The notes under the pieces were generated by a model. It did not search any database and had not been told where the DNA came from. It saw only the letters and a program-made list of their open reading frames with translations. A stretch of 64,000 nt of DNA. Origin: a phage. This document shows positions 13,084 to 28,140 of the stretch, in pieces; the first letter of the stretch is position 1; each line of letters opens with the position of its first letter. Both the position numbers and the translations under genes were made by a program. The stretch lies in the sequence record PV808484.1; one strand, 5' to 3'.

Positions 13084-13635
13084 ATGCGGATTACTGATAA
13101 GTATGTGTTCTTCTTCTCGGCAAAAGATGAATTTAGCAACTGGTATCTATCATCTTTTATTGAACCTTTAGCTCCCAAGTATAATAATTCTATCACAAGT
13201 TCTGTCGAATTTACTTGTGTGGAACAATATATGATGTGGAGAAAAGCATGTTTATTTTATGATTACAACATTGCATCTTCTATTTTAACCGGAGATCTAA
13301 GATATACAGGAGAAAAAGAACAAGCATATTATAAGCGACTAGGTAGATTAGTTAAAGATTATGATGAAGATACCTGGACTTCTTTACGGGAGAAGATTGT
13401 CAAACGTGGTTTGTATCTTAAATACACACAAAATGAAGATCTCAAAAATAAACTTATAGCTTACGCAGATAAGGAGTTCGTAGAGGCAAGCCCTTATGAT
13501 TCTATTTATGGTATCAAAATGGGGATGTGGGATCGTGATGTTGAAAATAAGGATTGTTGGAAAGGACAAAATCTTTTAGGAAAATGGCATACAGACCTTG
13601 CTGTTTATCTAAAAGCACAATCTGATATTTCCTGA
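13084..13635 (+). CDS. NADAR (YbiA-like, DUF1768) domain protein
   Basis: FFFSAKDEFSNWY, FTCVEQYMMWRKA, GIKMGMWD...NLLGKWH match NADAR signature blocks; ATG overlaps upstream stop. Confidence 0.7.
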   Translation: MRITDKYVFFFSAKDEFSNWYLSSFIEPLAPKYNNSITSSVEFTCVEQYMMWRKACLFYDYNIASSILTGDLRYTGEKEQAYYKRLGRLVKDYDEDTWTSLREKIVKRGLYLKYTQNEDLKNKLIAYADKEFVEASPYDSIYGIKMGMWDRDVENKDCWKGQNLLGKWHTDLAVYLKAQSDIS

Positions 13636-13854: not shown

Positions 13855-14051
13855 TTATTTAAAGTTTTTACAGATTTTTGGGTACAAATTTTGAAAATGA
13901 AAAGTTCAAGTTTGGTCAAAATTATTTAAAGTTTTTGTACGTATTTCCATCCAGATTTTGAAAATGAAAAGTTCAATTTTTTAAAAATTCCCCAGTTTAT
14001 TTAAAGTTTTTTTGCCTTTTTCCGTAGAAAAATCAAAAATGAAAAGTTCAA
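13855..14051. repeat. three imperfect tandem repeats (~67-73 bp) with two conserved boxes
   Basis: box A TTATTTAAAGTTTTT at 13855, 13923, 13997; box B TTTTGAAAATGAAAAGTTCAA at 13889, 13956, 14031. Confidence 0.6.
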
Positions 14052-14076
14052 TTTCGTGTTTTTATAGGTATGCGTA

Positions 14077-14190
14077 TGATAATCATTCTCATTTGTAAAT
14101 GAGAATCATTATCATTTAATTATGTAAGTGATAATCATTCTCAGTAAGAGAATGAGAATCATTAGCAAATGAGAATTTTCTCATTTAGAG
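14077..14190. promoter_or_regulatory. cluster of Fur-box-like palindromes
   Basis: TGATAATCATTCTCATT, AATGAGAATCATTATCATT, GTGATAATCATTCTCAG, AATGAGAATCATTAGC; compare Fur consensus GATAATGATAATCATTATC. Confidence 0.5.
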
Positions 14191-14447
14191 AATAACGCGT
14201 AGGGGTGGTGTTTGTCTCGCGCTCCCGTGTCCCCTCGCCATACAATAAGAATAGCATAACCAACAACAAAAGCAAGCGATTATTTTTATCTTTACATTTC
14301 TTTACAAATTTATTTTAGACGAGCTACCGGCGATCAACCTTCCAACCAGTGTGCCCTGGTATGTTAGCCCCGCCTTTACGCCGTGGGGGTGGCGCTTCCT
14401 CTTCTGTATGTAAAACAGTATAAGCCCGATCCCTGGGCTTGTCAAGA

Positions 14448-14714
14448 TTATTTTTTGTTTTCTTGCCAGGATAGGACACCTAACCAAAAATACATGTCGC
14501 CCCGCGCCCCTGGCGGGATCTTGCTTTCCCCGCCGCCACTGCAAGCCCATAGATAACCATTTGCGAACGTATCAAAATGATCTATTTCTTCCACCTTATG
14601 ATCGCCCAGGTTGAGAACGGTTTCAACCTTTAAGCCCGTTGCGCTTGCTACCTGGTGCACCGTGCCGCCTTGCCAGCCTAATGAGTGCATGAGGTGTAAA
14701 GTAGTATTTGTCAT
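14448..14714 (-). CDS. hypothetical protein (88 aa) in GC-rich segment
   Basis: internal ATG (MTNTTLHLMHSLGW...) in ORF-track frame; local GC roughly 50-60 percent versus 32-42 percent elsewhere; weak SD. Confidence 0.35.
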   Translation of the reverse strand: MTNTTLHLMHSLGWQGGTVHQVASATGLKVETVLNLGDHKVEEIDHFDTFANGYLWACSGGGESKIPPGARGDMYFWLGVLSWQENKK

Positions 14715-14824
14715 GGTATCGCCCTTTCTTTGATGTGCGCCCTGGTTGGCGCGGTAGAAAGATAATAGCCCCTTTCCTTTATAGATAGCAAGCAAAAAAG
14801 AAATGAAAAAAGATTAAAAAAGGG

Positions 14825-14853
14825 TTGACGTTCCTCACCTGGTAGCGTATTAT
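14825..14853 (+). promoter_or_regulatory. sigma70-like promoter
   Basis: TTGACG-17 nt-TATTAT. Confidence 0.45.
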
Positions 14854-14980
14854 TCATCTTGTCGAGGGGGGCGAGGCACAACGACAATAAACAAAAGGAG
14901 GGCGCAATGCAGGACGGGCAAAGGTGAGGATCTCCACAATCCACCGTCACAATAACATTACTTATAAAAGGTTGATAACG

Positions 14981-15076
14981 ATGATCAAGAAAGAAAACAG
15001 CTTGACGGTTGGAACGATTAACGCTATCATTTTCGCCGTTCCATTTTGGGTTGTAGTAGCGGTTATTATCTTTTAA
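14981..15076 (+). CDS. small hydrophobic peptide (31 aa), type I toxin-like
   Basis: MIKKENSLTVGTINAIIFAVPFWVVVAVIIF; about 120 nt leader containing a 6-codon mini-ORF (MQDGQR) with AAGGAGG SD. Confidence 0.35.
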   Translation: MIKKENSLTVGTINAIIFAVPFWVVVAVIIF

Positions 15077-15084
15077 AAATATTC

Positions 15085-15141
15085 TTGACAACGTTTTTTA
15101 ATCTGATAAGATGTATCACATAGGGCGGCAATAGTGCCGCT
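15085..15141 (+). promoter_or_regulatory. promoter plus 5'-UTR hairpin cassette
   Basis: TTGACA-16-TAAGAT then CATAGGGCGGCAATAGTGCCGCTCATA. Confidence 0.55.
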
Positions 15142-15164
15142 CATAACAGAAGAGAGAAATAATC

Positions 15165-15437
15165 ATGGCATCATATAGCGCATCAATGATCGTAATGGGT
15201 ATCACTGGTAAACCTATGCGCGGTGGCGGATCTTTCGCTAACATCAATATTGATGGACGTTTATCCCTGGACGCAGCGATCACAGTGGCACGGGAAACAT
15301 TTAAAAAAGAATGTAATTTCAATAAACAAGATTATCTCGGTTTCGCTATTGAAAAAACCGCGCGATTTGTGGATTATAAAAGCCCGAAAATGATCGACAC
15401 TACACTAAAAGCGAAAGATGTAGCGTTTTTGCTTTAA
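15165..15437 (+). CDS. hypothetical protein
   Basis: 90 aa ORF downstream of cassette. Confidence 0.55.
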   Translation: MASYSASMIVMGITGKPMRGGGSFANINIDGRLSLDAAITVARETFKKECNFNKQDYLGFAIEKTARFVDYKSPKMIDTTLKAKDVAFLL

Positions 15438-15440
15438 GAC

Positions 15441-15501
15441 TTGACACTGAAAAATAATTTGGTAATATATACCACATAAGGCGGGGAAATGGTTTCCCGC
15501 C
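15441..15501 (+). promoter_or_regulatory. promoter plus 5'-UTR hairpin cassette
   Basis: TTGACA...TAATAT then GGCGGGGAAATGGTTTCCCGCC. Confidence 0.55.
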
Positions 15502-15526
15502 AAGCCATCAAAGAAAGGGTAACACA

Positions 15527-15889
15527 ATGAGCAAGCAAATCAATACTATCATGTTAAACCTGGTATCTTTCCGCGATGACGTGAAAAATCTTTCGCGTGA
15601 TGCAGTGGATGCACGGATCGAAAGCTATCGCACACAGATCGCAACATTACCGTTAAAACGTGATCAACATGCCGCTAATATGATGCTTGATGCTATGATT
15701 AAAAAGATGATTCAATGTGATCTTACTCTGGCTTATGAATATGCTGGCGATCTTTTTGTAACATATAACAAGCCCGTTCCAGGTATGAGCACCACGGAAG
15801 AATTGCATGCCTTAAATCTGCGACAAGATGCATGGGATAACATGCGCCGTGTTATGGTATGGGTAGAAAGCGGTAAAATTTACGAATAA
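15527..15889 (+). CDS. hypothetical protein
   Basis: 120 aa ORF; AAAGGG SD. Confidence 0.55.
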   Translation: MSKQINTIMLNLVSFRDDVKNLSRDAVDARIESYRTQIATLPLKRDQHAANMMLDAMIKKMIQCDLTLAYEYAGDLFVTYNKPVPGMSTTEELHALNLRQDAWDNMRRVMVWVESGKIYE

Positions 15890-15895
15890 AAACGG

Positions 15896-15950
15896 TTGAC
15901 ATTGCACTAAAACCTGATAAGCTATCTTAAAGCGGGAATAGTTCCCGCTT
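15896..15950 (+). promoter_or_regulatory. promoter plus 5'-UTR hairpin cassette
   Basis: TTGACA then AAGCGGGAATAGTTCCCGCTT. Confidence 0.5.
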
Positions 15951-15967
15951 ACATAGGATAAAACTTT

Positions 15968-16114
15968 ATGAAACAATATGTAATGAGTATTCACACCAAA
16001 AACGGCGCTACTGTTACGACTCCGGCACGGTTTGCACTTGTAAACCGTTGCAAGAGACTAAAACGAGAGCTAAAAAACAACCGTGCAACGGGCTTTAAAC
16101 GCTGGGGAGGATAA
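15968..16114 (+). CDS. small basic protein (48 aa)
   Basis: hand-translated MKQYVMSIHTKNGATVTTPARFALVNRCKRLKRELKNNRATGFKRWGG; cassette upstream. Confidence 0.4.
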   Translation: MKQYVMSIHTKNGATVTTPARFALVNRCKRLKRELKNNRATGFKRWGG

Positions 16115-16116
16115 TC

Positions 16117-16389
16117 TTGTTTTTTCTAAAAGTTTTTGATAATGTGATCGCTTTTGAACATGCTGCAACGTTCAACCTGGCGAGATACGCTATCAGGTTT
16201 AAAGATAATGTTTATCCCCGTGCTGGTGGCGGTTACACTATCTTTAATCATCGTAACGCTCAATTAACGGATATAACGAATCCAGATCCTGGAGTGTATC
16301 GCATAGGTTGGCTACCGTCAAAAGACGCGGCAAGCATGTTTAAGGTGTGTAAACTACTAACAGAAGAGGCGAACGAACATGGGGCGTGA
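16117..16389 (+). CDS. hypothetical protein (probable TTG start)
   Basis: no in-frame ATG near 5' end; GGGGAGG SD 6 nt before TTG. Confidence 0.4.
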   Translation: MFFLKVFDNVIAFEHAATFNLARYAIRFKDNVYPRAGGGYTIFNHRNAQLTDITNPDPGVYRIGWLPSKDAASMFKVCKLLTEEANEHGA

Positions 16390-16933
16390 ATATGTGATCC
16401 AGTCCTGGGTAAAGCATGATGCTGATGATCCGCGCATAATACCAGATGACATGATCGATCACATGGTAGGGTATAGCGGGGAGCAGATAGGAAATCGAGC
16501 GGCAAAGAGCAACGGTCACACAAAAACGCGATCCGTTCGCCCTGGTTGGCTGGCAAATGGTAACGCTGACATTGCAAGCGCCGCAGATCCAAGCGATGAC
16601 GCTAAAAATAATCCCTTATACAGCATTGATCCGGCTTTTAAGGTGTTAGAAGAGTATCCCGCTAAATTAGCCGCACTAGATAAAGCATATGAAGAAAAGC
16701 GCATGGCATGGACGGTATACAACACCGCTAAAATGGTGCTAGATGCAAAATTGATTAAAGCCCAGGAGAAGATCAATAAACTTGTTACCATAGCGCAAGA
16801 GGAAGACCAGGACGACCAGGAGGAAGAGGAAGAAATCATGCCTACCCTGGAAGAGGAAGAGATCCAGCCATACATGCCGACGGAAGAGGAAAAAAGACAA
16901 GCCCTAAAAAATTATGAAAATTGTGTTGTGTAA
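16379..16933 (+). CDS. hypothetical protein with acidic C-terminus
   Basis: 184 aa; ATG overlaps upstream stop; EEDQDDQEEEEE tract. Confidence 0.5.
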   Translation: MGREYVIQSWVKHDADDPRIIPDDMIDHMVGYSGEQIGNRAAKSNGHTKTRSVRPGWLANGNADIASAADPSDDAKNNPLYSIDPAFKVLEEYPAKLAALDKAYEEKRMAWTVYNTAKMVLDAKLIKAQEKINKLVTIAQEEDQDDQEEEEEIMPTLEEEEIQPYMPTEEEKRQALKNYENCVV

Positions 16934-16936
16934 GGC

Positions 16937-17042
16937 TTGACATATGCAAACAAGCCCCGTAATATGTACCACATAAAGCGGGGCAACGCCCCATAAGGTG
17001 AAATAAAAAATCACTTGACACCTGAAATCAGTAAGCTATAAT
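16937..17042 (+). promoter_or_regulatory. tandem promoters, first with 5' hairpin
   Basis: TTGACA-17-TAATAT then AAGCGGGGCAACGCCCCAT; second TTGACA-16-TATAAT. Confidence 0.5.
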
Positions 17043-17079
17043 GCTTATATAGATTGAAACATTACTAAGGAATAAAAGC

Positions 17080-17259
17080 ATGGCTATTATTGCAAAGACT
17101 GAGATCGTAGGTTTAGATTCTATCATCCTGGCATATGAGGAAGCTATAGAAATGTATGTGGTTTCCTATGGTGATTATATCCGTGAATATAAATCTATTG
17201 ATCTAGCTTTTGAATGCTATATTCGCCAGGTCAATAAAGCCTATGATGATTATCGTTAA
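17080..17259 (+). CDS. small protein (59 aa)
   Basis: hand-translated MAIIAKTEIVGLDSIILAYEEAIEMYVVSYGDYIREYKSIDLAFECYIRQVNKAYDDYR. Confidence 0.4.
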   Translation: MAIIAKTEIVGLDSIILAYEEAIEMYVVSYGDYIREYKSIDLAFECYIRQVNKAYDDYR

Positions 17260-17354
17260 AAGTTTTAGTCTTGTGCTATTGACAACGAACGATAGTGCAA
17301 GCATAATAACTTTTATCGGGAATACTCCTAACTAATCAAAAGAGATTAAAGACT

Positions 17355-17720
17355 ATGGCTAAAAATATCAATGTTTCTGCTTATGCTACCCTGGCTAACA
17401 CTGCTAAAATTGAACTATCCAGCATTGAAGCGGTACATATTAGCGCCCGTCGCTGGTTTCAAAAGTCTTATGGTAACACTTATTTCTCTTTGATGGTTGA
17501 CGTTGAGATCGGCGGTAAACTGATTGAAGTCGTTAACGTTCCGTTTCACTATGGCTACGGGGATCATTTTGATACCGTTGCCCTAGAAGAGTTTAGCAAG
17601 GTTATCAACCTGGAAGGTAAAGAATTTTCAAATTATGCCTACCTTTCCCGTTTTTGCCGTGATAATGGGATCGCTGTATACAGTCATGCAAGCGATGTTA
17701 AACGTAAAAAAGATTTATAA
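17355..17720 (+). CDS. hypothetical protein
   Basis: 121 aa ORF; TTGACA-type promoter about 17280. Confidence 0.55.
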   Translation: MAKNINVSAYATLANTAKIELSSIEAVHISARRWFQKSYGNTYFSLMVDVEIGGKLIEVVNVPFHYGYGDHFDTVALEEFSKVINLEGKEFSNYAYLSRFCRDNGIAVYSHASDVKRKKDL

Positions 17721-17726
17721 AAAGCA

Positions 17727-17754
17727 TTGACAGCACGAATAAAAAGCGTAAAAT
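17727..17754 (+). promoter_or_regulatory. sigma70-like promoter with no ORF directly downstream
   Basis: TTGACA-16-TAAAAT; followed by about 85 nt structured noncoding sequence. Confidence 0.4.
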
Positions 17755-17840
17755 GTTTCATATCAGGACGGGGAACGAAGTAACACCCCGTTAAGTAGCC
17801 CAGGAGTAAGACACACGAAAAACTCCCCTGATAAAATAGT

Positions 17841-17901
17841 TTGACAATGGTTTCTAATAACGTATAATACTTACATCGAGAGCGGGAACACTTCCCGCCT
17901 C
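17841..17901 (+). promoter_or_regulatory. promoter plus 5'-UTR hairpin cassette
   Basis: TTGACA-16-TATAAT then AGCGGGAACACTTCCCGCC. Confidence 0.55.
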
Positions 17902-17923
17902 ACTGAAAAAAGAGATTAACATC

Positions 17924-18163
17924 ATGGCTAAATCTAAAATGTTCTTAGGTCACAAAAACAAAACTCATTGGAATGTAAGCCTTTGGATCAACAACGATGA
18001 AGGTTTTTATAATCTTGCGCGTGAATTTATCGCAGCTAACACCAATAAGAATGACGCAGCGCGTGATATGATGTTATTTCTTGAAAGTATGGATCAAGAT
18101 AAAACGCCAGACGGATTCAAGTTCAGTAAAACCGCGATCCGTGCCGCTATGGTTGGAATGTAA
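17924..18163 (+). CDS. hypothetical protein
   Basis: 79 aa ORF. Confidence 0.55.
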   Translation: MAKSKMFLGHKNKTHWNVSLWINNDEGFYNLAREFIAANTNKNDAARDMMLFLESMDQDKTPDGFKFSKTAIRAAMVGM

Positions 18164-18258
18164 AGGAGACATAAAAATGAAACATCGTTCGACCTATCTC
18201 ACAAAACGTTTTAGCTTAGATCATAAATTGGGCTATTACGGAAGAAATAGAAAATAAT

Positions 18259-18318
18259 TTGACAACGTTTTAAATTAGTGTAAGATATATCACATAGGGC
18301 GGGAAATGGTTTCCCGCC
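18259..18318 (+). promoter_or_regulatory. promoter plus 5'-UTR hairpin cassette
   Basis: TTGACAACGTTTT...TAAGAT then GGGCGGGAAATGGTTTCCCGCC. Confidence 0.55.
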
Positions 18319-18340
18319 AAATCAAAGAAAGGTTATCATT

Positions 18341-18568
18341 ATGGCTATCATTATTGTTCGCGTATCCGGTACGGTTGGAAGCTCCCAGGTAGTAGCAGTT
18401 ATCACAGAGAAGAAAGGGGATGATCTTCACTCTTCCTTGAATAGTTGGGCGGTCGCTAATTTTGGTCAGTGGTCGAGCGTCGAGTATATCGAATCCTACC
18501 AGGTGCCGACGATTAGCCTAACCGATTTAAATGTTGATCGCTTGTTGTGCCTGGATGGATTAAACTAA
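18341..18568 (+). CDS. hypothetical protein
   Basis: 75 aa ORF. Confidence 0.55.
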   Translation: MAIIIVRVSGTVGSSQVVAVITEKKGDDLHSSLNSWAVANFGQWSSVEYIESYQVPTISLTDLNVDRLLCLDGLN

Positions 18569-18576
18569 AAATAATC

Positions 18577-18633
18577 TTGACAAGATAACTAAAATCAGTA
18601 AAATGTAATGCATAGGGCGGCAATAGTGCCGCT
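18577..18633 (+). promoter_or_regulatory. promoter plus 5'-UTR hairpin cassette
   Basis: TTGACA-16-TAAAAT then CATAGGGCGGCAATAGTGCCGCTCATA. Confidence 0.55.
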
Positions 18634-18655
18634 CATAGTAAGAGAGATTATCAAA

Positions 18656-18871
18656 ATGGCTAATATCCGCACACTGTTAAAAAATGCAAGTCAAGTTTTA
18701 TTTTCAGATGACGAGTATTTCAACAAAGACATTACAGGCGTGAAAAATTTAAAAGACGTGAAGGATGTTATCGGTATCCGTGGATCTTTACGTAAAGGTG
18801 ACATATACGGTAACAAGGTGCAATATAAACTGTCAAAAGATTATGATTTTACTTTGACAATTATCAATTAA
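18656..18871 (+). CDS. hypothetical protein
   Basis: start at internal ATG (MANIRT) downstream of cassette. Confidence 0.5.
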   Translation: MANIRTLLKNASQVLFSDDEYFNKDITGVKNLKDVKDVIGIRGSLRKGDIYGNKVQYKLSKDYDFTLTIIN

Positions 18872-18882
18872 GGGATCACAAA

Positions 18883-19041
18883 ATGAAAACTTGCCAATGT
18901 GGTAAAAAGTCTATCTCTGGTTTAAAACGTGGCGTTGCTCTTTGTCAATATCACTATAACGCTCAAACGTGGGGTAAGCAGTGGGCGGATCAGATGGAAG
19001 AGGCAAAGAAAGAAAATATAAAAGTAGTTGCAAAGAAATAA
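18883..19041 (+). CDS. small Cys-containing protein (52 aa)
   Basis: hand-translated MKTCQCGKKSISGLKRGVALCQYHYNAQTWGKQWADQMEEAKKENIKVVAKK. Confidence 0.4.
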   Translation: MKTCQCGKKSISGLKRGVALCQYHYNAQTWGKQWADQMEEAKKENIKVVAKK

Positions 19042-19112
19042 AAATAAAGTAAACTGTATTCATCAAGGCGGTGGAATAGCCCACCGCCTAACAAAGAGAA
19101 GAGGAAAACATC

Positions 19113-19283
19113 ATGATCACTTTCGCTACCCGTGAAGCCGCTCGCAACGTTGCACGTAAAGTTAACGCCGCCAACCTGGGCGCTACGTTTAAAGCCCCGG
19201 TGAAAGATGAGTCAGGAAAATGGATCTTCCCTGGTCTGCGTCACGCTGATAAGCTGGGAACATTAACGTTAAAAAATAAATAA
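19113..19283 (+). CDS. small protein (56 aa)
   Basis: hand-translated MITFATREAARNVARKV...; preceded by hairpin GGCGGTGGAATAGCCCACCGCC. Confidence 0.4.
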   Translation: MITFATREAARNVARKVNAANLGATFKAPVKDESGKWIFPGLRHADKLGTLTLKNK

Positions 19284-19290
19284 GATCCGC

Positions 19291-19349
19291 TTGACAGTAG
19301 CATGATTTATAAGTAAAGTAACAACAACGGCGGGAAATGGTTTCCCGCC
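19291..19349 (+). promoter_or_regulatory. promoter plus 5'-UTR hairpin cassette
   Basis: TTGACA-17-TAAAGT then GGCGGGAAATGGTTTCCCGCC. Confidence 0.55.
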
Positions 19350-19369
19350 ATCAATAAAGAGATAAGATT

Positions 19370-19729
19370 ATGAAATCAGTAAAAGCAATCAAAACTTACA
19401 TTGTATCGGCTATTTCTTTTGAAGGTACTACAACCGAAAAAGAAAAAATCACCGAACTGATGCGCCGTTTTAATTCTGAATACTGGTATCCCGATAATCA
19501 AAAACGTTACAATTATAACGTGATCAAGGCGATAGCCTCATGGTTACAAGGTTTACCGTCAGACATTAACATCGCCTTTGATTATAACGAGATCGATCAC
19601 TTGTTAATTGAATGGAAGTACATAAAAGAAACAAGCAAAGAAACAACCGTTACCCGTGAGCGGGAAAATTATTGGTTATATATTGCAAGCATGATCGTAA
19701 TCCTGGCAAAACAGCATAACGTGGCGTAA
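19370..19729 (+). CDS. hypothetical protein
   Basis: 119 aa ORF. Confidence 0.55.
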   Translation: MKSVKAIKTYIVSAISFEGTTTEKEKITELMRRFNSEYWYPDNQKRYNYNVIKAIASWLQGLPSDINIAFDYNEIDHLLIEWKYIKETSKETTVTRERENYWLYIASMIVILAKQHNVA

Positions 19730-19743
19730 TTAAGAGGAAGAAA

Positions 19744-19881
19744 CATGAACGCATCACAGCAGATCGAAAAATTCAACCGCAGCAAGGCGCGTAAAGATTG
19801 GAACGAAGAGATCACCAAAAAAGGCGACAAGCGGAACAAAACAAAAAGAGATCGCAGCACAAAAAGACACTGGAACGAATA
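19744..19881 (+). CDS. small basic protein (45 aa)
   Basis: hand-translated MNASQQIEKFNRSKARKDWNEEITKKGDKRNKTKRDRSTKRHWNE; terminator follows. Confidence 0.35.
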
Positions 19882-19887
19882 ACAAAA

Positions 19888-19910
19888 AAGGGCGCAATAA
19901 GCGCCCTTTT
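19888..19910 (+). terminator. rho-independent terminator
   Basis: AGGGCGC-AATAA-GCGCCCT then TTTTA. Confidence 0.6.
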
Positions 19911-20000
19911 AGCTTATATAGAGGCTTGTTACCCATAGGCAATGGTAACGCCAGGGCAAGCCTATAAACAACGTTAGACGGCTTTACAGGAGCTTTAAAA

Positions 20001-20183
20001 ATGAGATTAGAAGAAATAAGCAAGGCACTAGCCCAGGGGCAAAGGTTATGCGCCAGATATCGTGATCAATATGGCTTCATAACTAGCGGCGTGATCCTGG
20101 GGATTGAAGGCAATAAGATTTTTATTGACACGTTGAAAAACGTTGTATATAGTGACAATATAATCTCAATAAAACATATATGA
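20001..20183 (+). CDS. hypothetical protein
   Basis: 60 aa ORF. Confidence 0.45.
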   Translation: MRLEEISKALAQGQRLCARYRDQYGFITSGVILGIEGNKIFIDTLKNVVYSDNIISIKHI

Positions 20184-20593
20184 GGCAAGAAATGAAAAAC
20201 TTATTGATCGCTGGTTTACTCTCTTTTGGTATGGTTGGAACATCTAGCGCGGCGATATCCTCCACAGTAGCAGAATTAAGCGCCGTTGATGCAATGGAAA
20301 ACGTCATGCTTATTAATAATGCGATCCCCGATGAAATCATGGAGGATTCACACATGATCGCTTATGGTGCTGTTACACAACTAACGGCAAAAATAGATAA
20401 ATCTATTGTTAATGGCTTAAATGAAGATGTACCATGTGAAATTATTACCAGTGTGCTTACTACTCAAAATTTTACGCCGTGGTTAAAAAGTATTCAAAAA
20501 GTACACAGTACAGCCGCAGATCGTAGCAATGAAAAACTAGTGTCAGCACTTGCAACGTATACCCTAGCAAAATGCACCGAGATAAAAGATTGA
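20180..20593 (+). CDS. predicted secreted protein
   Basis: N-terminal KNLLIAGLLSFGMVGTSSA signal-peptide-like segment. Confidence 0.5.
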   Translation: MRQEMKNLLIAGLLSFGMVGTSSAAISSTVAELSAVDAMENVMLINNAIPDEIMEDSHMIAYGAVTQLTAKIDKSIVNGLNEDVPCEIITSVLTTQNFTPWLKSIQKVHSTAADRSNEKLVSALATYTLAKCTEIKD

Positions 20594-20616
20594 CAACATA
20601 GAAAGCACGTTATAAG
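20590..20616 (+). promoter_or_regulatory. sigma70-like promoter
   Basis: TTGACA-15-TATAAG, then AAGGAG SD. Confidence 0.45.
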
Positions 20617-20640
20617 ATACACACAACAAAGGAGAACTAC

Positions 20641-20943
20641 ATGAACGGCATAGCTAAAACGTTTTTTCTTTTTTCTGGTGTAAATGATCCATCAATAAAA
20701 GTCGATAGTGTAAAAGAAAACAATACTATCACCGCTAAATTGTTTCAAGATGAAACAAATAACGTGCTAATCATTAATCTTAAAGAAATAACTAAAGGTT
20801 ATTATACTATTGCTTACCATGCAATCTATCATGCTGGTACTAGTGAGGAAGTGCAAACAAGCAACAACGAAAGCGCGGCGCTACCTGGTGATCTGGTGCT
20901 GGGCGTTATCAGTTTAATTGTCAATGATTTTTTTAAGGAGTAA
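20641..20943 (+). CDS. hypothetical protein
   Basis: 100 aa ORF. Confidence 0.55.
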   Translation: MNGIAKTFFLFSGVNDPSIKVDSVKENNTITAKLFQDETNNVLIINLKEITKGYYTIAYHAIYHAGTSEEVQTSNNESAALPGDLVLGVISLIVNDFFKE

Positions 20944-20947
20944 AACC

Positions 20948-21043
20948 ATGCCCTATTTACATTTATTTTTCGGTATCTTATTGACAGGATCTTTTTTCTT
21001 CTGTATGCTTGTTTCTATTGTAAACCACGTTTTAAGACATTAA
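20948..21043 (+). CDS. small hydrophobic peptide (31 aa)
   Basis: MPYLHLFFGILLTGSFFFCMLVSIVNHVLRH. Confidence 0.3.
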   Translation: MPYLHLFFGILLTGSFFFCMLVSIVNHVLRH

Positions 21044-21052
21044 GGAAACAGC

Positions 21053-21172
21053 ATGAAAATTATTCCCGTACAATATAGCGTAATAAATCCAGCATACGAG
21101 GAAGGAAGGAAAACAAGCATGGCTTTATGTTGTATTGCTACTATAGCCATGTTGTTATGCATTGTGTTTTAA
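21053..21172 (+). CDS. small hydrophobic peptide (39 aa)
   Basis: MKIIPVQYSVINPAYEEGRKTSMALCCIATIAMLLCIVF. Confidence 0.3.
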   Translation: MKIIPVQYSVINPAYEEGRKTSMALCCIATIAMLLCIVF

Positions 21173-21272
21173 TAGGTTTTATAGTTGTACGCTTTAAAGG
21201 CTTGACAATTTTTTGTTATGCTTTAAACTATATCTTGAAAACGGCAAAGGCCGCAAACAAAAGGGTAAAATT

Positions 21273-21596
21273 ATGAAATCTGTGATCGGTGTTTATTTGG
21301 ATAACTCTGATTTTTTCTATCATCGCGCTCGTTTCCTTGATGCGATTGAAATGATAGAATCAGGCTTTAAAGAGTATCGCCTTGCACATGATGACCTGGA
21401 AGCATTACAGGGCAATAGTGTTTTTACATTGCAAGCTAAAGCACTATGCAAAAGCCGGATCGACATTGCGAGCAAAAAGATAGAACGCGGCATGTCCTGG
21501 TTGCGCACCGCAGAAATCAACATGGGGCAATGGTACGGCGAAAACTTAGAAAATAAACATGCTTTTGTCAATGTAGAAAATATTGAAGATTATTGA
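21273..21596 (+). CDS. hypothetical protein
   Basis: start at internal ATG (MKSVIG) after AAAGGG SD. Confidence 0.5.
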   Translation: MKSVIGVYLDNSDFFYHRARFLDAIEMIESGFKEYRLAHDDLEALQGNSVFTLQAKALCKSRIDIASKKIERGMSWLRTAEINMGQWYGENLENKHAFVNVENIEDY

Positions 21597-21658
21597 TTGA
21601 CAGCACACCTAACGGGTAGTATATTGTATCTCATAGAGCGGGGAAATGGTTTCCCCGC
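21597..21658 (+). promoter_or_regulatory. promoter plus 5'-UTR hairpin cassette
   Basis: TTGACA-17-TATATT then GCGGGGAAATGGTTTCCCCGC. Confidence 0.55.
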
Positions 21659-21678
21659 CATCAATAAAGAGATAAGCT

Positions 21679-21963
21679 ATGAAGATCACAAAAGCACTTT
21701 CCAACTATGCAGCACGTCGCGGATTATGTTTAACCGTTGAAAATTTAGGGAAAGAAGATTTTTTGTGCTTTTGGGAGCTTGAGAATGATAATGAGTGGAT
21801 CTTCTCTTATTCTATCTGCGAAGATCAAAACGGTTGTTTATTAACCTGGCGCGGTAATATCTATCTACCGGAAGAAATCAAAGAAGAATTACCAGGCACG
21901 ATCATGACTGAGAAACAGCTTAAGGAAGTGATCAATTTTGTAGGGCAAAACATTAAAAAATAA
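21679..21963 (+). CDS. hypothetical protein
   Basis: 94 aa ORF. Confidence 0.55.
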   Translation: MKITKALSNYAARRGLCLTVENLGKEDFLCFWELENDNEWIFSYSICEDQNGCLLTWRGNIYLPEEIKEELPGTIMTEKQLKEVINFVGQNIKK

Positions 21964-21964
21964 T

Positions 21965-22022
21965 TTGACAGCAGAAAAACAACGTAGTAAAGTTTATCAC
22001 ATAGGGCGGCAATAGTGCCGCT
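21965..22022 (+). promoter_or_regulatory. promoter plus 5'-UTR hairpin cassette
   Basis: TTGACA-17-TAAAGT then CATAGGGCGGCAATAGTGCCGCTCATA. Confidence 0.55.
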
Positions 22023-22044
22023 CATAACAGAAGAGAAACAAATC

Positions 22045-22215
22045 ATGATCCCGACTATGTTTTATGTATCGCGCAAAGGTCACAATATTTTTTGGTCTGA
22101 AGATTTAAATGAAGCCATGACGTTTGCCCGTGATCGTGTTGCTATCGGTGGCGTTAACATTACTGTAACCGATGAAAATGGCATTGAATACTATAACGGC
22201 GACGATGAAGAGTAA
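22045..22215 (+). CDS. small protein (56 aa)
   Basis: start at ATG (MIPTMF) downstream of cassette. Confidence 0.45.
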   Translation: MIPTMFYVSRKGHNIFWSEDLNEAMTFARDRVAIGGVNITVTDENGIEYYNGDDEE

Positions 22216-22260
22216 TTAACAAGGCGGGGAGTATTCCCGCCGTCAATAAAGGATAATATC

Positions 22261-22398
22261 ATGAAAACTTTCAACGCAACAGCATCAACAATTGGTTATA
22301 TTATCACCGTGCAAGCTATTGATCTAGTAGCTGCAACAAACAAGATTAAAAACATGATCCCTGTAGGCAGTGATTTTTCCGTTTGGGAAGTAAAATAA
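22261..22398 (+). CDS. small protein (45 aa)
   Basis: MKTFNATASTIGYIITVQAIDLVAATNKIKNMIPVGSDFSVWEVK; hairpin GGCGGGGAGTATTCCCGCC upstream. Confidence 0.35.
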   Translation: MKTFNATASTIGYIITVQAIDLVAATNKIKNMIPVGSDFSVWEVK

Positions 22399-22401
22399 AT
22401 C

Positions 22402-22463
22402 TTGACAGTGATTTGTTATTTGATAAGATGTACTACGTAGGGCGTGGCAATAAGGCAACGCCC
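22402..22463 (+). promoter_or_regulatory. promoter plus 5'-UTR hairpin cassette
   Basis: TTGACA-17-TAAGAT then GGGCGTGGCAATAAGGCAACGCCC. Confidence 0.5.
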
Positions 22464-22484
22464 CACATCAGAAAGGGAAAGATT

Positions 22485-22721
22485 ATGACTATAGCAACAG
22501 TATTAACCGCCGTTAAAACCGCCGAATCATCCGGCTTGCATGTTGAGATTATAGATCAACCAGGTGGCGATCTCCTTGTCCAGGTTTACCCGCCGAAAGT
22601 AGGGGATGATTATTATTGGTGCTATTCTGATACGTTCGAACAAGTAGACACGAAAGCGATCACGGCTTTTATTTTAAAAGCTATTGAAGAAAATAACTTT
22701 CATTATAACATCAATCAATAA
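22485..22721 (+). CDS. hypothetical protein
   Basis: start at internal ATG (MTIATV) after AAAGGG SD. Confidence 0.5.
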   Translation: MTIATVLTAVKTAESSGLHVEIIDQPGGDLLVQVYPPKVGDDYYWCYSDTFEQVDTKAITAFILKAIEENNFHYNINQ

Positions 22722-22763
22722 ACCATAAGCGGGGCAGTAACGCCCACTAATGAGGGTAAAATC

Positions 22764-22868
22764 ATGTTAGAGAAAATTTTCACGGTTGTAGTAGTGGGCC
22801 TGGCGTTATCGGTTGGAGTGGTTGCAACTATGGCTAACATGATTCTATCTTCTCACGGTATTGGATAA
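22764..22868 (+). CDS. small hydrophobic peptide (34 aa)
   Basis: MLEKIFTVVVVGLALSVGVVATMANMILSSHGIG. Confidence 0.3.
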   Translation: MLEKIFTVVVVGLALSVGVVATMANMILSSHGIG

Positions 22869-22878
22869 GGTGAATCAA

Positions 22879-23094
22879 ATGATCACGAATAAGACAGGTA
22901 AAACAGAATTTTTACGCGGCTTGCAAATAGGTAAACCTGAGATCTGGCATTGCACTAAATCCGCGCATAATGAAATGAAAGATTTTACCGCTACTTTACA
23001 ACGTGTTAAAATATCTATCACACAGAAAAAAGCCTTGTTAGTAGTAGAAAACGAGATCCCGCAAACTATTATTATTGTCGAGCGTACAGCATGA
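22879..23094 (+). CDS. hypothetical protein
   Basis: ATG (MITNKTG) with AAGGTG SD. Confidence 0.5.
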   Translation: MITNKTGKTEFLRGLQIGKPEIWHCTKSAHNEMKDFTATLQRVKISITQKKALLVVENEIPQTIIIVERTA

Positions 23095-23477
23095 AAACAG
23101 AAATCATTATTGAAATCATCAACGGTTATAAAGAAGCCTTTATTTTTGCTGAATCCGCCAGGGATCATGAAGGTAATTTTATTGATAACTTGACTGATTA
23201 TGATTTTTCAGATCAAGCCCATCAGCGGATCATTCATGACGTAGCGGCTTATTGTGATGCCAATGATGCCGCTATCTCTGAGGCAATGAGCGACGGCGCA
23301 ACAGCCAACCAGATCGGGAATGATTTACATTTTACCCGTAATAGTCACGGCGTAGGCTTTTGGGATCGCCCTGAAATATACACTACTAACACCGCCAACC
23401 GCTTAACTAATGCAGCTAAATTGATGCCATCGGTGCATGCTTACATTGGTGAAGATAATTTGATTTATATTGAATAA
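23091..23477 (+). CDS. hypothetical protein
   Basis: 128 aa ORF; ATGA overlap. Confidence 0.55.
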   Translation: MKTEIIIEIINGYKEAFIFAESARDHEGNFIDNLTDYDFSDQAHQRIIHDVAAYCDANDAAISEAMSDGATANQIGNDLHFTRNSHGVGFWDRPEIYTTNTANRLTNAAKLMPSVHAYIGEDNLIYIE

Positions 23478-23483
23478 AAAGTA

Positions 23484-23542
23484 TTGACACCGATCCCCAA
23501 TATGGTACTATTTACCACGTAGGCGGGAAATGGTTTCCCGCC
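23484..23542 (+). promoter_or_regulatory. promoter plus 5'-UTR hairpin cassette
   Basis: TTGACA then GGCGGGAAATGGTTTCCCGCC. Confidence 0.55.
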
Positions 23543-23565
23543 AGGTAATCAAAAAGGTAAATACT

Positions 23566-23955
23566 ATGCGCAACCTGGTTTCTGTTTCTAACGTTGAAAA
23601 ATTTCAATCTTTACAGGGTATCGTTAACAACGTAGCGCCTTTTTTAGTCAACGGCTTGATTGCAAAGATGAAAAATAAACATCATGCGGCATGGTCTGCT
23701 TACTGCTTTGATAATGATGAAAAAGCGGCTGAAATGATGTTAAATATGCTGTTAGACAGTGTAGAATCATCTTTACCGGAAAACATCGCAGAAGAGATCA
23801 CCTATCGTTATAATATGGCGATCACTTACCAGGAGGTTGCGCAATTTAATATGATGGACGATGACGAACAACAGGATCAGGAAATTTTCTGGGAGTATGC
23901 AGATCGTCAATCGGCTTTTGATGAAAAGTTAGCGATGTATTATAACGAATATTAA
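23566..23955 (+). CDS. hypothetical protein
   Basis: start at internal ATG (MRNLVS). Confidence 0.5.
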   Translation: MRNLVSVSNVEKFQSLQGIVNNVAPFLVNGLIAKMKNKHHAAWSAYCFDNDEKAAEMMLNMLLDSVESSLPENIAEEITYRYNMAITYQEVAQFNMMDDDEQQDQEIFWEYADRQSAFDEKLAMYYNEY

Positions 23956-23970
23956 TACACGGTAAAAGAA

Positions 23971-23997
23971 AGGGGCGCACTAAGCGCCCTTTTTTGT
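23971..23997 (+). terminator. rho-independent terminator
   Basis: GGGCGC-ACTAA-GCGCCC then TTTTTTG. Confidence 0.7.
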
Positions 23998-24341
23998 ATT
24001 CTTTTTTCACAATGGAAGCGACACGTAAAGAATAGGCGTAAAAGGTGGCGTAAAACCATCTAAAACCGACTGTAACCGCTTAAACAAGGCAGGGATGATT
24101 AATCCCCTTACCAGGATGAAAAAGCTGTTAGAGAGCTATTCATAGCGTTTAAAGCACATAGGAAATAATTTGCTTTTTATCTTGCCTTTTATCCTGCTTT
24201 TGATTATTATTATGGAACGGGCGGCACCTGGGGACAGGGGAAGATAATCACCGGAAGATCCCGCTATATATTGATAGCTAATACCTATTAAACAACAAAA
24301 CATCAAAGGGATAAACTATCAAATCTTTACAATCCTACCTA

Positions 24342-24400
24342 TTGACACACGATCACCCTTATACTAATATGTATCCCGTAGGCGGGAAATGGTTTCCCGC
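24342..24400 (+). promoter_or_regulatory. promoter plus 5'-UTR hairpin cassette
   Basis: TTGACA-17-TAATAT then GGCGGGAAATGGTTTCCCGC. Confidence 0.55.
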
Positions 24401-24419
24401 TTGATATAGGAATCATACC

Positions 24420-24650
24420 ATGATCGAACAAATTAAAAGCACTCAAAATGTTAACGGCAATGTGTTCCACTTTATCGGCAATAAAGGAAAAGGCGTACCC
24501 TACGCCGCCGTAACCGTGCAACCTAATGGCGATTATTGGTTTACCGTGTACGGATCATACTCTTTCGGACGCCCGGCACATGATAAGATCTTGCAAGCGG
24601 TTAAACCTGCGGGGAAGAATATTACAGCAGAAAAATTTTATAAAAAATAG
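24420..24650 (+). CDS. hypothetical protein
   Basis: 76 aa ORF. Confidence 0.55.
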   Translation: MIEQIKSTQNVNGNVFHFIGNKGKGVPYAAVTVQPNGDYWFTVYGSYSFGRPAHDKILQAVKPAGKNITAEKFYKK

Positions 24651-24725
24651 CTTGCTTTATTTCTTCTGTTAACTTATAGTTATCGCGTAGGGCAAACAAT
24701 TTTAAACGGTAGACGAGGAATCACC

Positions 24726-25109
24726 ATGAGCAATATCATCAACCTGGCAGCGACTGTAAACGGTAAAGACTTTAACGGCGCTGTAGACCGTGATCCTATG
24801 TGGTGCTTATCAGTGTTTAAAGGCGATCTGGTTGAAGTTAGAACAACCGAAGGGTATAGCGATGATTATAAATGCGAGATCCATTTACATAACTGGTACA
24901 CGGGGAAAACTTATGCGCTGAATCACGCGTTTATCGGGAAAATTGAATATCGCGAGATGATCGACGATGAAACGGGGCAAGATTTTAGTGATTATGTTTA
25001 TATTCGTTCAGAAACATTAGCCGAACGTTTGATCGAGAAAATGAAAGCAAAAAATAAAATTAATTTAGCTCATTGGCTTGATATAACAAATGATCCGGCT
25101 TACAAGTAA
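24726..25109 (+). CDS. hypothetical protein
   Basis: 127 aa ORF; GAGG SD. Confidence 0.55.
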   Translation: MSNIINLAATVNGKDFNGAVDRDPMWCLSVFKGDLVEVRTTEGYSDDYKCEIHLHNWYTGKTYALNHAFIGKIEYREMIDDETGQDFSDYVYIRSETLAERLIEKMKAKNKINLAHWLDITNDPAYK

Positions 25110-25124
25110 ATAACATTTCATACC

Positions 25125-25150
25125 AGGGCGCACAAAGCGCCCTTTCTTTT
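25125..25150 (+). terminator. rho-independent terminator
   Basis: AGGGCGC-ACAAA-GCGCCCT then TTCTTTTT. Confidence 0.65.
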
Positions 25151-25357
25151 TACCTAAATAAAGATGATAGCTTTTACCTATCAAAAACATTCACCGAAAA
25201 AAGTGAATAGATCGCGGTATCGAGCTAATCAAGGAGCAGATGAACAACCATACCATGAAGATCATAAGGCGCTTACAACGTGTTTTAAACCGCTTATTTT
25301 TAATTTCTCCATGTAACTATCTGGCAAAAACAGCCTTTTTCGTGTCTTTCCTCTTAA

Positions 25358-25430
25358 GTGATAATCATTCTTATTTATAGCTGATTATTTATGCAATAAA
25401 CTGCATAATGCAATAATGATAATCATTCTT
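25358..25430. promoter_or_regulatory. Fur-box-like palindromes
   Basis: GTGATAATCATTCTTA and AATAATGATAATCATTCTT; the latter 16/19 to Fur consensus. Confidence 0.5.
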
Positions 25431-25440
25431 AACTTATGAC

Positions 25441-25790
25441 CATCTAACCTATAAAATAATAAGTTATCTAACTAAATTAAAGCTAATTATTTCACCTTTA
25501 TTTATAACTTACTGTTACTATCTCATTGATAACCTTATATTAAACAACAATAACTAATATAAATCATTACTAAGCTAAATATAATCTATCTAACCTTTAA
25601 AACTATAACTATAATCTATCGAATTGTTGCACAAAGTAACTATTAAATTGTTAGTAACATTACTAAATAATTCATATCCTATCTATTTATGATCTAATCT
25701 TTACTTTCCTATCTATTACCTAAATAATCCTATCATACAGTTACCATTTCATGTAATAATCATTTCATACAATAACTATAACAAGAAATA
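25441..25790. repeat. G-depleted AT-rich low-complexity tract
   Basis: about 4 percent G on plus strand; degenerate ATCTATC / CTAACCT motifs. Confidence 0.55.
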
Positions 25791-25808
25791 TAATTCGCAA
25801 GCGTATCA

Positions 25809-25982
25809 TTAGCAGCCTATGCCGGACACATAGGCGGCTAATAATAACGCAACTACACACCCCACATAATAACCATCACCGATAGTTATTATTTGTGCTT
25901 ATGTAGCTTGCAACAATTGCAAGCGCAACAATATACATGGTATATTGTATCCCTTACATTGTTGCGGTGCGTTATTATTAGC
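25809..25982. repeat. nested inverted repeats (structured noncoding element)
   Basis: hairpin TTAGCAGCCTATG-CCGGACA-CATAGGCGGCTAA; palindrome GCTTGCAA-CAA-TTGCAAGC; 14-bp inverted pair GCTAATAATAACGC / GCGTTATTATTAGC. Confidence 0.5.
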
Positions 25983-26296
25983 TAATGTTTGGAACATTGG
26001 CTATAATATAAGCTAAATAATAAGCTATTCAATAATAAACATAATGAATAATGACACTGATGATCATAATGCGCCACCTTCCAGGGGGCGCTATGTGAAC
26101 ACAAAGAAATCTTTCTTGTCAAGAAAAATATTAACACTATTGCGCAAAATTATTTATGTCTGAATAGATGATTTTTCATACTATTGTTATTATTTATCGG
26201 CCCTAACTATTGCCTATTTGTTGAGCCTACTTTCTTAAAAGCGCAATAAATCAGAATTATCTTGATTTTTAGGGTGTTTTATAGTATAGAAAATAT

Positions 26297-26317
26297 GCAA
26301 ATGATAATCATTATCAG
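26297..26317. promoter_or_regulatory. Fur-box-like site (near consensus)
   Basis: GCAAATGATAATCATTATCAG; 16 contiguous matches to Fur consensus. Confidence 0.55.
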
Positions 26318-26481: not shown

Positions 26482-26513
26482 GAATGATAATGCAAATGAT
26501 AATTATTCTCATT
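26482..26513. promoter_or_regulatory. Fur-box-like site
   Basis: GAATGATAATGCAAATGATAATTATTCTCATT. Confidence 0.45.
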
Positions 26514-28139: not shown

Positions 28140-28140
28140 C

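Follow-up and report, generated by a model that had tools for sequence, protein, structure and literature searches.

How are small genes of unknown function, packed closely together in a phage genome, each supplied with the signals for their own expression, and what is the role of a GC-rich hairpin that recurs between promoter and start codon? These questions are raised by a 64,000 nt stretch of phage record PV808484.1 (here called the window), in which positions 15000-24500 of the + strand were studied. This 10 kb stretch holds about 20 small genes of unknown function, most of them preceded by a promoter, a hairpin and a weak ribosome site. The window belongs to a Justusliebigvirus, that is a phi92-like coliphage, and the studied region matches Escherichia phage EmilieFrey (MZ501063, 79000-88500) along its whole length at 97.6% identity. 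An earlier sequence-only reading of this DNA had described the units as an array of near-identical promoter and hairpin cassettes, and had suggested that the hairpin is either a 5' stabiliser or the binding site of a dedicated regulator. The array is real and far exceeds chance expectation. Our preferred explanation, held at a probability of roughly 0.45, is that each unit is a self-contained, swappable early-gene cassette whose 5' hairpin would stabilise or insulate the mRNA.

An array of promoter-hairpin modules beyond chance

The pattern TTGACA-N16/17-TAnnnT occurs 19 times on the + strand of the studied region and once on the - strand, where 0.125 occurrences are expected from dinucleotide shuffles; the near-consensus promoters with 16-17 nt spacers and a TAnnnT -10 hexamer that had been read here are thus borne out, and are of the sigma-70 type. 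Promoters followed by a strict hairpin, with a stem of at least 6 pairs that includes at least 5 G-C pairs and lies no more than 20 nt from the -10, number 12 on the + strand against 0.005 expected. When hairpins are scored by folding energy instead, 14 promoters have one behind them, with energies of -9.4 to -14.5 kcal/mol (Table 1); the earlier count of at least 14 spacers is matched by energy and comes to 12 by the strict hairpin criterion. Two extra modules bring a TTGCAA -35 (a fifteenth, at 19028) and a weak hairpin (at 21202).

Both of the long repeats that had been noticed between copies were recovered exactly, CATAGGGCGGCAATAGTGCCGCTCATA at 15119, 18611 and 22000 and GGCGGGAAATGGTTTCCCGCC at 18298, 19329 and 23522, near copies of the latter stand at 15481 and 24381, and by chance no occurrence of either would be expected. 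The conserved lead TATCACATAGG, proposed to mark the transcript start, is exact in three modules and lies within two mismatches in about eight, the looser match not being significant as a motif alone. The proposal that each cassette drives one small gene describes about 10 of the 16 modules, the remainder driving none, two or three open reading frames (ORFs). The array spans 14825-25143, slightly more than the limits first given to it, 15085-24420.

Across the 64 kb of the window, hairpins of the GGCGGG type are confined to 15.1-24.4 kb, and every other strong hairpin is a terminator of the ordinary kind, with a T-tract. The complete EmilieFrey genome likewise has its modules only at 79.0-88.4 kb; outside the array that genome holds three unrelated sites with promoter, hairpin and ribosome-binding site (RBS), all on the other strand. 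The - strand of the window also carries promoter, hairpin and RBS combinations at 60821, 49157 and 41259, with stems AGGAGAGC..., AACCCCC... and AAAGCCCC..., ahead of - strand genes. At 41259, where a T-rich tail is present, a promoter may overlap a terminator.

Anatomy of the module and its predicted leader

The anatomy of the unit was assessed on 161 modules (98 of them unique), collected by looser criteria from the window and 13 related arrays, making 14 arrays from four phage groups. Amongst the 98 unique modules, 10.4±1.9 nt separate the -10 from the start of the hairpin and 20.5±3.1 nt separate the hairpin's end from the ATG, in agreement with the distance of about 20 nt to the start codon that had been read earlier. 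Over the 14 arrays, GC hairpins without a T-tract have a promoter upstream in 154 instances (with the end of the -10 lying 4-16 nt away) and downstream in 3, all three of these being empty cassettes. The arrangement is strand-specific, with approximately 140 strict modules on the gene strand of 13 loci as against one on the opposite strand.

Folding of the leaders, which the sequence-only reading had recommended as a check, came out in favour of the hairpin: in each of 11 predicted leaders that were folded it is formed, with z scores from -1.7 (the weak hairpin at 21202) to -5.0. Two promoters that lack a hairpin, at 17015 and 20590, have leaders predicted to be unstructured, with z about 0. 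Of 16 predicted leaders, 12 leave the 15 nt preceding the ATG unpaired. Ribosome sites of the hairpin cassettes are weak (AAGAG, AAAGG), with a mean of -4.4 kcal/mol to the anti-Shine-Dalgarno sequence and GGAG in none of 12, as against a mean of -8.1 kcal/mol and GGAG in 10 of 14 for the strong AAGGAG sites of the neighbouring + strand block (26816-38714).

Terminator or transcribed leader

A short GC-rich hairpin in an intergenic spacer is also what an intrinsic terminator looks like; unlike a terminator, the hairpin here has no U-tract, is placed after a promoter and lies 20 nt ahead of a start codon. In the 98 unique modules the 8 nt past the hairpin are 49% A and 18% T, with four or more T in only 3 of the 98, and five or more T stand beside the hairpin on the opposite strand in only 5. 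The array's own canonical terminators (19886, 23967 and 25125) do have T-tracts, and their stems belong to a GGGCGC/GCGCCC family unlike the module stems. That the lack of a U-tract speaks against a terminator had been argued from the start, and it still does. Together with the constant position of the hairpin 3' of a promoter, it makes a well-supported case, from these sequence features, that the hairpin is not an intrinsic terminator and is probably part of the transcribed 5' leader.

Public records describe these hairpins otherwise or omit them. In the record of phage Paula (LR865361) they are labelled as terminators, 9 of the 11 under the match being placed on the strand opposite all genes, and the record of phage G17 (MK327931) labels as terminators hairpins that lie 19-20 nt before start codons. 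The phi92 RefSeq and EmilieFrey records leave them unannotated, and the supplement of the rV5 paper lists promoters and no hairpins. We found no published description of these modules in the literature, and an Rfam scan of 14000-26000 returned three sub-threshold matches only, none on a module hairpin. As 287 phage records match the studied region, mostly Justusliebigvirus and Phapecoctavirus of the Stephanstirmvirinae, hairpins that are unannotated or mislabelled, often on the wrong strand, probably leave the operon maps of hundreds of therapeutic-candidate coliphages wrong in their most variable region.

Conservation of structure across phage groups

A search of related phages, also recommended earlier, found the module architecture in Justusliebigvirus, Phapecoctavirus, Asteriusvirus and Vequintavirus, a range broader than the sequence-only reading knew. 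Modules lie on the gene strand only and number 10-14 in each of six other Justusliebigvirus phages, 13 in each of four Phapecoctavirus phages, 9 in each of two jumbo Asteriusvirus phages (where the -35 reads TTGCAA and the stems include GGGGAGAA/TTCTCCCC) and 5 in one Vequintavirus. The modules of different phage groups cannot be aligned, yet hairpin stability is kept. The same holds between orthologues: cassette genes carry two to six different hairpins across phages, differing from the loop only (GCGGGAA-TAG/CAC/TAC/CTC-TTCCCGC) to wholly different stems, and all are stable (-9 to -18 kcal/mol).

When orthologous upstream regions are compared in pairs, the density of substitutions is lowest in the -35 hexamer (0.022), followed by the stem arms (0.035-0.046), the -10 hexamer (0.063), the loop (0.108) and the promoter spacer (0.150). 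An alignment of 40 distinct hairpins gives a covariation score of 0.350 against 0.183 in shuffles, none of 500 of which reaches it, with 37 both-side-changed cells against 15.8; this result is descriptive and partly circular, the sequences having been selected as hairpins. The MAFFT alignment sets even-loop and odd-loop hairpins one column out of register, such that its 79% pairing is an underestimate and the control slid by -1 is inflated. As an evolutionary correlate, these comparisons indicate that selection acts on the structure of the hairpin and not on its sequence. The polarity of the hairpin, with the G-rich arm first in 52 of 52 unique hairpins, was considered as a strand marker and rejected, because the reverse complement of X-loop-rc(X) still has X first and polarity carries no strand information.

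Modules of like design were also observed in an unrelated GC-rich actinophage, Mycobacterium phage Thonko (MH632120, 61850-69471), where seven lie on the gene strand near the genome end. They consist of TTGACA-N17-TAACTT, an 11-nt lead ending gtga, GGCGGG-N5-CCCGCC and 12-18 nt with a Shine-Dalgarno (SD) sequence before the ATG. A second contig, IMGVR_UViG_2974682767_000001, has six modules of the Thonko type; it came from a degenerate pattern scan of IMG/VR in which the matches listed were mostly single chance matches and the multi-match contigs were the informative ones. A limited literature search found no description of the Thonko modules, in which the architecture probably arose independently.

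Proposed mechanism

The early-gene cassette would work as follows. A near-consensus sigma-70 promoter would be read by unmodified host RNA polymerase right after infection, and the transcript would start a few nucleotides before the stable GC hairpin, with the nascent RNA folding 2-5 nt from its 5' end. About 20 nt, A-rich, unstructured and containing a weak SD sequence, would separate the hairpin from the start codon of a small accessory gene. By base-pairing the 5' end, the hairpin would hinder 5'-end-dependent decay by RppH and RNase E. The upstream edge of the ribosome footprint lies at about -20, so that the hairpin would abut it and hairpin and bound ribosome would leave almost no naked leader open to RNase E or RppH. 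The hairpin would also isolate the ribosome site from upstream sequence, allowing any ORF placed behind the unit to be expressed predictably. Since the unit of about 85 bp is repeated, it would double as the homology for adding, deleting and swapping cassettes within and between phage lineages. The sequences themselves show the anatomy of the unit, that it is non-random, that its structure is conserved, that terminator features are absent and that recombination junctions fall within units; we infer that expression is early, where exactly the transcript begins and that the hairpin stabilises or insulates.

Precedent comes from Escherichia coli, where a 5'-terminal stem-loop stabilises mRNAs whatever its sequence (Emory 1992; Bouvet and Belasco 1992; as cited in PMC3997798) and RppH requires unpaired 5' nucleotides (PMC3997798). 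Like the stabilisers of ompA and papA and the synthetic-biology elements derived from them, the modules are predicted to open their transcript, or nearly so, with a hairpin that does not depend on a particular sequence and lies ahead of an accessible ribosome site; here too stems vary whilst stability is kept, and the RBS is predicted to be unpaired. The ompA and papA elements are single and gene-specific, with measured effects on half-life, whereas the present unit is repeated and mobile and is known from sequence. A stabiliser function of the hairpin is plausible on these grounds. With the start assumed 7 nt past the -10, the predicted unpaired 5' segment averages 3-4 nt (range 0-8), and a heuristic choice of start site gives an overhang of 0-6 nt; measured by the known 5'-stabiliser rule, which allows about 0-4 unpaired nucleotides, the predicted overhang is borderline.

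Several points weigh against the stabilising cassette. If transcription starts at the first CA past the -10, many modules have a 5' overhang of 5-6 nt, which may exceed what 5'-end protection allows. Promoterless hairpin and RBS units, which make up some 10-15% of units and lie just past a stop codon, would not be 5'-terminal unless the RNA is processed. All TTGACA promoters of the 26.8-39 kb block lack hairpins, as do several within the array, where the hairpin is absent or vestigial at 17015, 17279, 20590 and 24652. The fixed spacing may derive partly from common descent and gene conversion of the unit and not from selection. Single substitutions in the stems favour sense-strand G.U over A.C by about 7 to 2, which is suggestive only, earlier versions of this comparison having been confounded, the first by peripheral pairs and the orthologue version by hairpin-type swaps. 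Finally, the literature yielded no transcriptome or mapped transcript ends for phi92-, rV5- or 121Q-like phages. A link to RNase E activation was also considered and set aside as unsupported, a Pfam scan having found no Srd-like or RNA-binding phage factor near the array.

If the hairpin is indeed a 5' stabiliser or insulator, the array would be a natural collection of compact (about 85 bp) plug-and-play expression units, which would explain how host-takeover and anti-defence genes are gained and lost without disturbing their neighbours and would give phage and E. coli engineering a set of natural parts ready for use. A wider proposal, which we regard as unlikely, is that promoter, near-start hairpin and minimal ribosome site amount to a standard part of accessory-gene arrays in phages, widespread but unrecognised, which either arose independently in or spread among Stephanstirmvirinae, Vequintavirus, Asteriusvirus and mycobacteriophages. 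In this proposal the hairpins would all serve one specific function, such as protecting early phage mRNAs against an RNA-targeting defence or against a 5'-end-dependent RNase that is of host origin or activated by the phage, and would also direct cassette exchange between unrelated phages.

Relationship to promoter early stem-loops and the attenuator explanation

The sequence-only reading had likened the array to the promoter early stem-loops (PeSLs) of T4-type phages, in which a strong sigma-70-like promoter and a stem-loop accompany hyperplastic regions and modular shuffling (PMC2839356). Reference phages for these elements are RB49/phi1, PST/T4 and nt-1/KVP40 (Arbiol et al. 2010, PMC2839356; Comeau et al. 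2014, PMC4122927). The analogy is right for behaviour. Both are repeats of about 70-100 bp that combine a near-consensus sigma-70 promoter, a GC stem-loop with a G-rich first arm, an SD sequence and a start codon; both precede small ORFs of unknown function clustered in a plastic region; and in both the units form the junctions of insertions, deletions and replacements among close relatives, with chimeric and degraded units occurring. The transcribed lead is also similar (acacacata in RB49, cacatag here).

For geometry the analogy is wrong. In PST and nt-1 the stem-loop lies just upstream of the promoter (PMC4122927), and when the hyperplastic region of RB49 was tested directly the hairpin was found to be the 17-nt spacer between TTGACA and -10 in 6 of 8 hairpin-associated promoters. 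The PeSL stem-loop thus precedes its own transcription start and is outside the cassette's own transcript, whereas here the hairpin lies about 10 nt 3' of the -10 in all of the approximately 160 modules scanned, inside its own transcript. The carriers also differ, being Stephanstirmvirinae, Vequintavirus and Asteriusvirus and not T4-like phages. As the hairpin departs from the defining PeSL anatomy, the array is best described as a variant of the PeSL and not a member; if the stabilising cassette is correct, it would carry the PeSL idea, in another geometry, to phages that are not T4-like.

Mixed cases were observed on both sides. RB49 has at position 2179 (flipped 114001-124500) a unit with the window's geometry beside its classical PeSLs, comprising TTGACA-N17-TAACAT and a hairpin TGGGAGGGGTAATACTCTCCCA that lies 9 nt past the -10 and 19 nt before the ATG. 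In Vequintavirus MaxBurger (L007), the repeat GATGGCC-TTGACTyCA-GGGCCATC-aataaag-TAAACT at 5614, 6245, 6580 and 9984 sets the -35 hexamer in the loop of the hairpin, a genuine PeSL geometry in the same kind of small-gene array.

The PeSL literature also supplies the best-surviving alternative, although we consider it improbable: that the hairpins are transcription attenuators or insulators, as proposed for PeSLs, which damp upstream polymerase and possibly that of their own promoter, perhaps yielding short RNAs of 25-30 nt, with the level of each gene set by its own promoter. In reporter assays a PeSL stem-loop made of a G-run and a C-run cut downstream lacZ expression as strongly as rrnB T1, and it was read as a terminator of upstream transcription (PMC2839356); premature termination just past promoters is common in Pseudomonas phages (PMC10914365). 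Promoterless copies stand directly past stop codons, and the annotators of Paula and G17 did call the hairpins terminators. The labels in Paula, however, fall mostly on the gene-less strand, and a U-tract is present on neither strand. Because the hairpin is always 3' of its own strong promoter, an attenuator would cut that promoter's output, whereas the genuine PeSL hairpin lies in or before the promoter, and the array already has its canonical terminators.

Variability of the hairpin and the binding-site explanation

A GC hairpin in nascent RNA soon after an early promoter recalls the lambda nut (boxB) and HK022 put elements, and a second alternative, to which we attach slightly less weight than to attenuation, makes the hairpin a binding site for a phage or host factor. 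It could be a nut boxB- or put-like RNA site that modifies polymerase, a site at which a repressor or nuclease shuts off early genes, or a palindromic DNA operator at +4 to +25. Its position just past early promoters would suit the first of these, and the element is indeed palindromic and overlaps the initially transcribed region. A GGCGGG/CCCGCC stem recurs in an unrelated mycobacteriophage, and promoter 17727 is followed by a two-hairpin element without an ORF. Against sequence-specific recognition, a single genome has at least seven stem types and numerous loops (UGG, AUGG, UAG, CAC, AAUAGU, GACAA), and these are swapped at orthologous sites; the dedicated regulator suggested at the outset is disfavoured by this variety between copies in one genome. 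The nut and put elements occur once per operon, serve antitermination and have conserved loops or partner motifs, whereas here there is one hairpin per gene, stems and loops vary, and apart from the weak, variable CACATAG lead no partner motif resembling boxA came to light. The search for a binding protein, confined to Pfam and PHROG scans of 20 ORFs, gave no candidate.

Cassette turnover

Rearrangements scored against six close relatives are consistent with the swapping that the early-gene cassette would allow. Promoter-to-promoter deletions have overlaps of 7-16 bp overall. Positions 17764-17863 of the window are missing in Paula, VivaForever and phi92 (15 bp overlap, promoters 17727/17841), and phage muut lacks both 18602-19041 (12 bp overlap, promoters 18577/19028) and 14832-15888 (16 bp overlap). 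A chimeric module in muut joins the TTGACG -35 of 14825 to the remainder of 15896. The overlaps and chimeras show that homologous exchange has taken place between units.

Genes are replaced as well as lost. Paula, ZYD, muut and ALITA have other genes in place of 22268-22738, a two-gene replacement whose left junction lies right past the promoterless hairpin, RBS and ATG at 22223-22263 and whose right junction falls within the hairpin unit at 22726. ZYD and ALITA carry a gene where the window has an ORF-less stretch 3' of promoter 17727, and in Paula and ZYD the module orthologous to 21965 has another hairpin type amid 97%-identical sequence. Single cassettes are held in common with Vequintavirus and Asteriusvirus phages at 82-93% identity, and three adjacent segments of 17742-18163 find their best G17 counterparts in three different G17 cassettes. 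In total 30 of 54 breakpoints fall within modules, which make up 19% of the region; the test is not a clean one, since viable breakpoints must avoid coding sequence and the enrichment alone proves little.

The least probable alternative reads the unit as a module for recombination or mobility, or as a selfish repeat that gene conversion keeps uniform, whose hairpin has no role in expression and promotes template switching or strand exchange: indel and replacement junctions within units, chimeric and empty units, hairpin types exchanged at orthologous sites of 97%-identical phages and PeSL crossovers mapped in or beside the stem-loop (PMC2839356) all favour it, but most junctions mapped here fall outside the hairpin, in the region of the promoter hexamers or at the RBS/ATG, stability is kept across very different stems and non-alignable phage groups, and the fixed placement relative to -10 and ATG is not something that recombination alone would need.

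Inventory and genomic context

The units of the array are listed in Table 1.

Table 1. Promoters, hairpin modules and terminators of the array, in window coordinates. Energies are in kcal/mol; "yes" in the fourth column marks the 14 energy-defined modules, for which the -35 starts at the first position given.
Feature	Position	Strand	Energy-defined	-10	Hairpin	ATG	Remarks
First promoter, TTGACG-N17-TATTAT	14825..14853	+			degenerate in this phage		orthologue in Phapecoctavirus REC (L004 2204) has hairpin GGGCGGCAATGGTGCCGCTC and a gene
Module	15085..15167	+	yes	15107-15112	15123-15142 GGGCGGCAATAGTGCCGCTC, -12.9	15165	-35 15085-15090; leader z = -4.3
Module	15441..15529	+	yes	15463-15468	15480-15501, -14.1	15527	
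Module	15896..15970	+	yes	15918-15923	15930-15950 AAGCGGGAATAGTTCCCGCTT, -12.3	15968	three ORFs, ending 16933
Empty cassette	16937..17014	+	yes	16960-16965	core 16980-16992		no ORF; abuts next promoter
Promoter without hairpin, perfect consensus TTGACA-N16-TATAAT	17015..17082	+				17080	leader predicted unstructured, z = +0.5
Promoter TTGACA-N17-CATAAT	17279..17357	+			vestigial, GGGAATACTCC	17355	
Promoter and hairpin, no ORF	17727..17840	+	yes	17749-17754	17767-17792		then about 50 nt of conserved non-coding sequence
Module	17841..17926	+	yes	17863-17868	17882-17898 GCGGGAACACTTCCCGC, -9.8	17924	DUF7249 gene
Module	18259..18343	+	yes	18281-18286	18298-18318 GGCGGGAAATGGTTTCCCGCC, -14.0	18341	
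Module	18577..18658	+	yes	18599-18604	18615-18634, -12.9	18656	
Module, TTGCAA -35	19028..19115	+		TAAACT 19050-19055	19066-19089 AGGCGGTGGAATAGCCCACCGCCT, -17.7	19113	orthologue in Paula
Module	19291..19372	+	yes	19314-19319	19329-19349, -14.0	19370	
Canonical bidirectional terminator AAAAGGGCGCAATAAGCGCCCTTTT	19886..19910	both					other stem family, T-tracts
Promoter without hairpin, TTGACA-N17-TAAGAT	20590..20643	+				20641	strong SD AAGGAG; leader z = +0.2
Weak-hairpin module	21202..21275	+		21224-21229	21242-21253 CGGCAAAGGCCG, -4.9	21273	z = -1.7
Module	21597..21681	+	yes	21620-21625	21638-21658 GCGGGGAAATGGTTTCCCCGC, -14.0	21679	
Module	21965..22047	+	yes	21988-21993	22004-22023, -12.9	22045	
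Promoterless hairpin and RBS unit	22223..22263	+			22223-22241 GGCGGGGAGTATTCCCGCC	22261	hairpin 8 nt past upstream stop codon
Module	22402..22487	+	yes	22424-22429	22440-22463 GGGCGTGGCAATAAGGCAACGCCC, -12.8	22485	
Degenerate promoterless hairpin and RBS unit	22726..22766	+			GCGGGGCAGTAACGCCCAC, about 4 bp	22764	read from sequence; intact version in REC, GGGGCGGTAACGCCCC
Module	23484..23568	+	yes	23506-23511	23522-23542, -14.0	23566	
Canonical terminator AGAAAGGGGCGCACTAAGCGCCCTTTTTT	23967..23995	+					T-tract
Module	24342..24422	+	yes	24365-24370	24379-24403, -13.9	24420	
Degenerate last module, TTGCTT-N17-TATAGT	24652..24728	+			none	24726	conserved lead tatcgcgtaGGG; gp30.8-like gene
Canonical terminator closing the array, AGGGCGCACAAAGCGCCCT	25125..25143	+					then T-tract

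The array genes are homologues of phi92 gp226-gp248, and every product tested in Pfam and PHROG scans of 20 ORFs fell into PHROGs of unknown function; among them one matched DUF7249 and one was T4 gp30.8-like. The array adjoins the genome terminus, the equivalent block of phi92 lying immediately 5' of the right terminal repeat of its linear genome. Nearly 3 kb beyond the array (23996-26800) are largely non-coding except for two cassette genes and correspond to the phi92 genome end with its direct terminal repeat; from this match, transcription of the array runs towards the physical terminus. Just 5' of the array, on the + strand at 12106-13635, are genes for a CapR-domain/T5orf172 protein and a NADAR-domain protein, which may be relevant to anti-defence or ADP-ribosylation biology.

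The ORF-less unit at 17727 is either an empty cassette or a small-RNA candidate, as far as its sequence suggests. Positions 17742-17877, within it and the next module, match muut at 92% identity and, at 88.6%, an intergenic stretch without annotation in the jumbo phages G17 and SD-1_S14. The predicted fold of this segment has two hairpins closed by AUCAGG/CCUGAU, at -18 kcal/mol and with no covariation, and could belong to a small RNA or to a long, structured leader in front of the DUF7249 gene.

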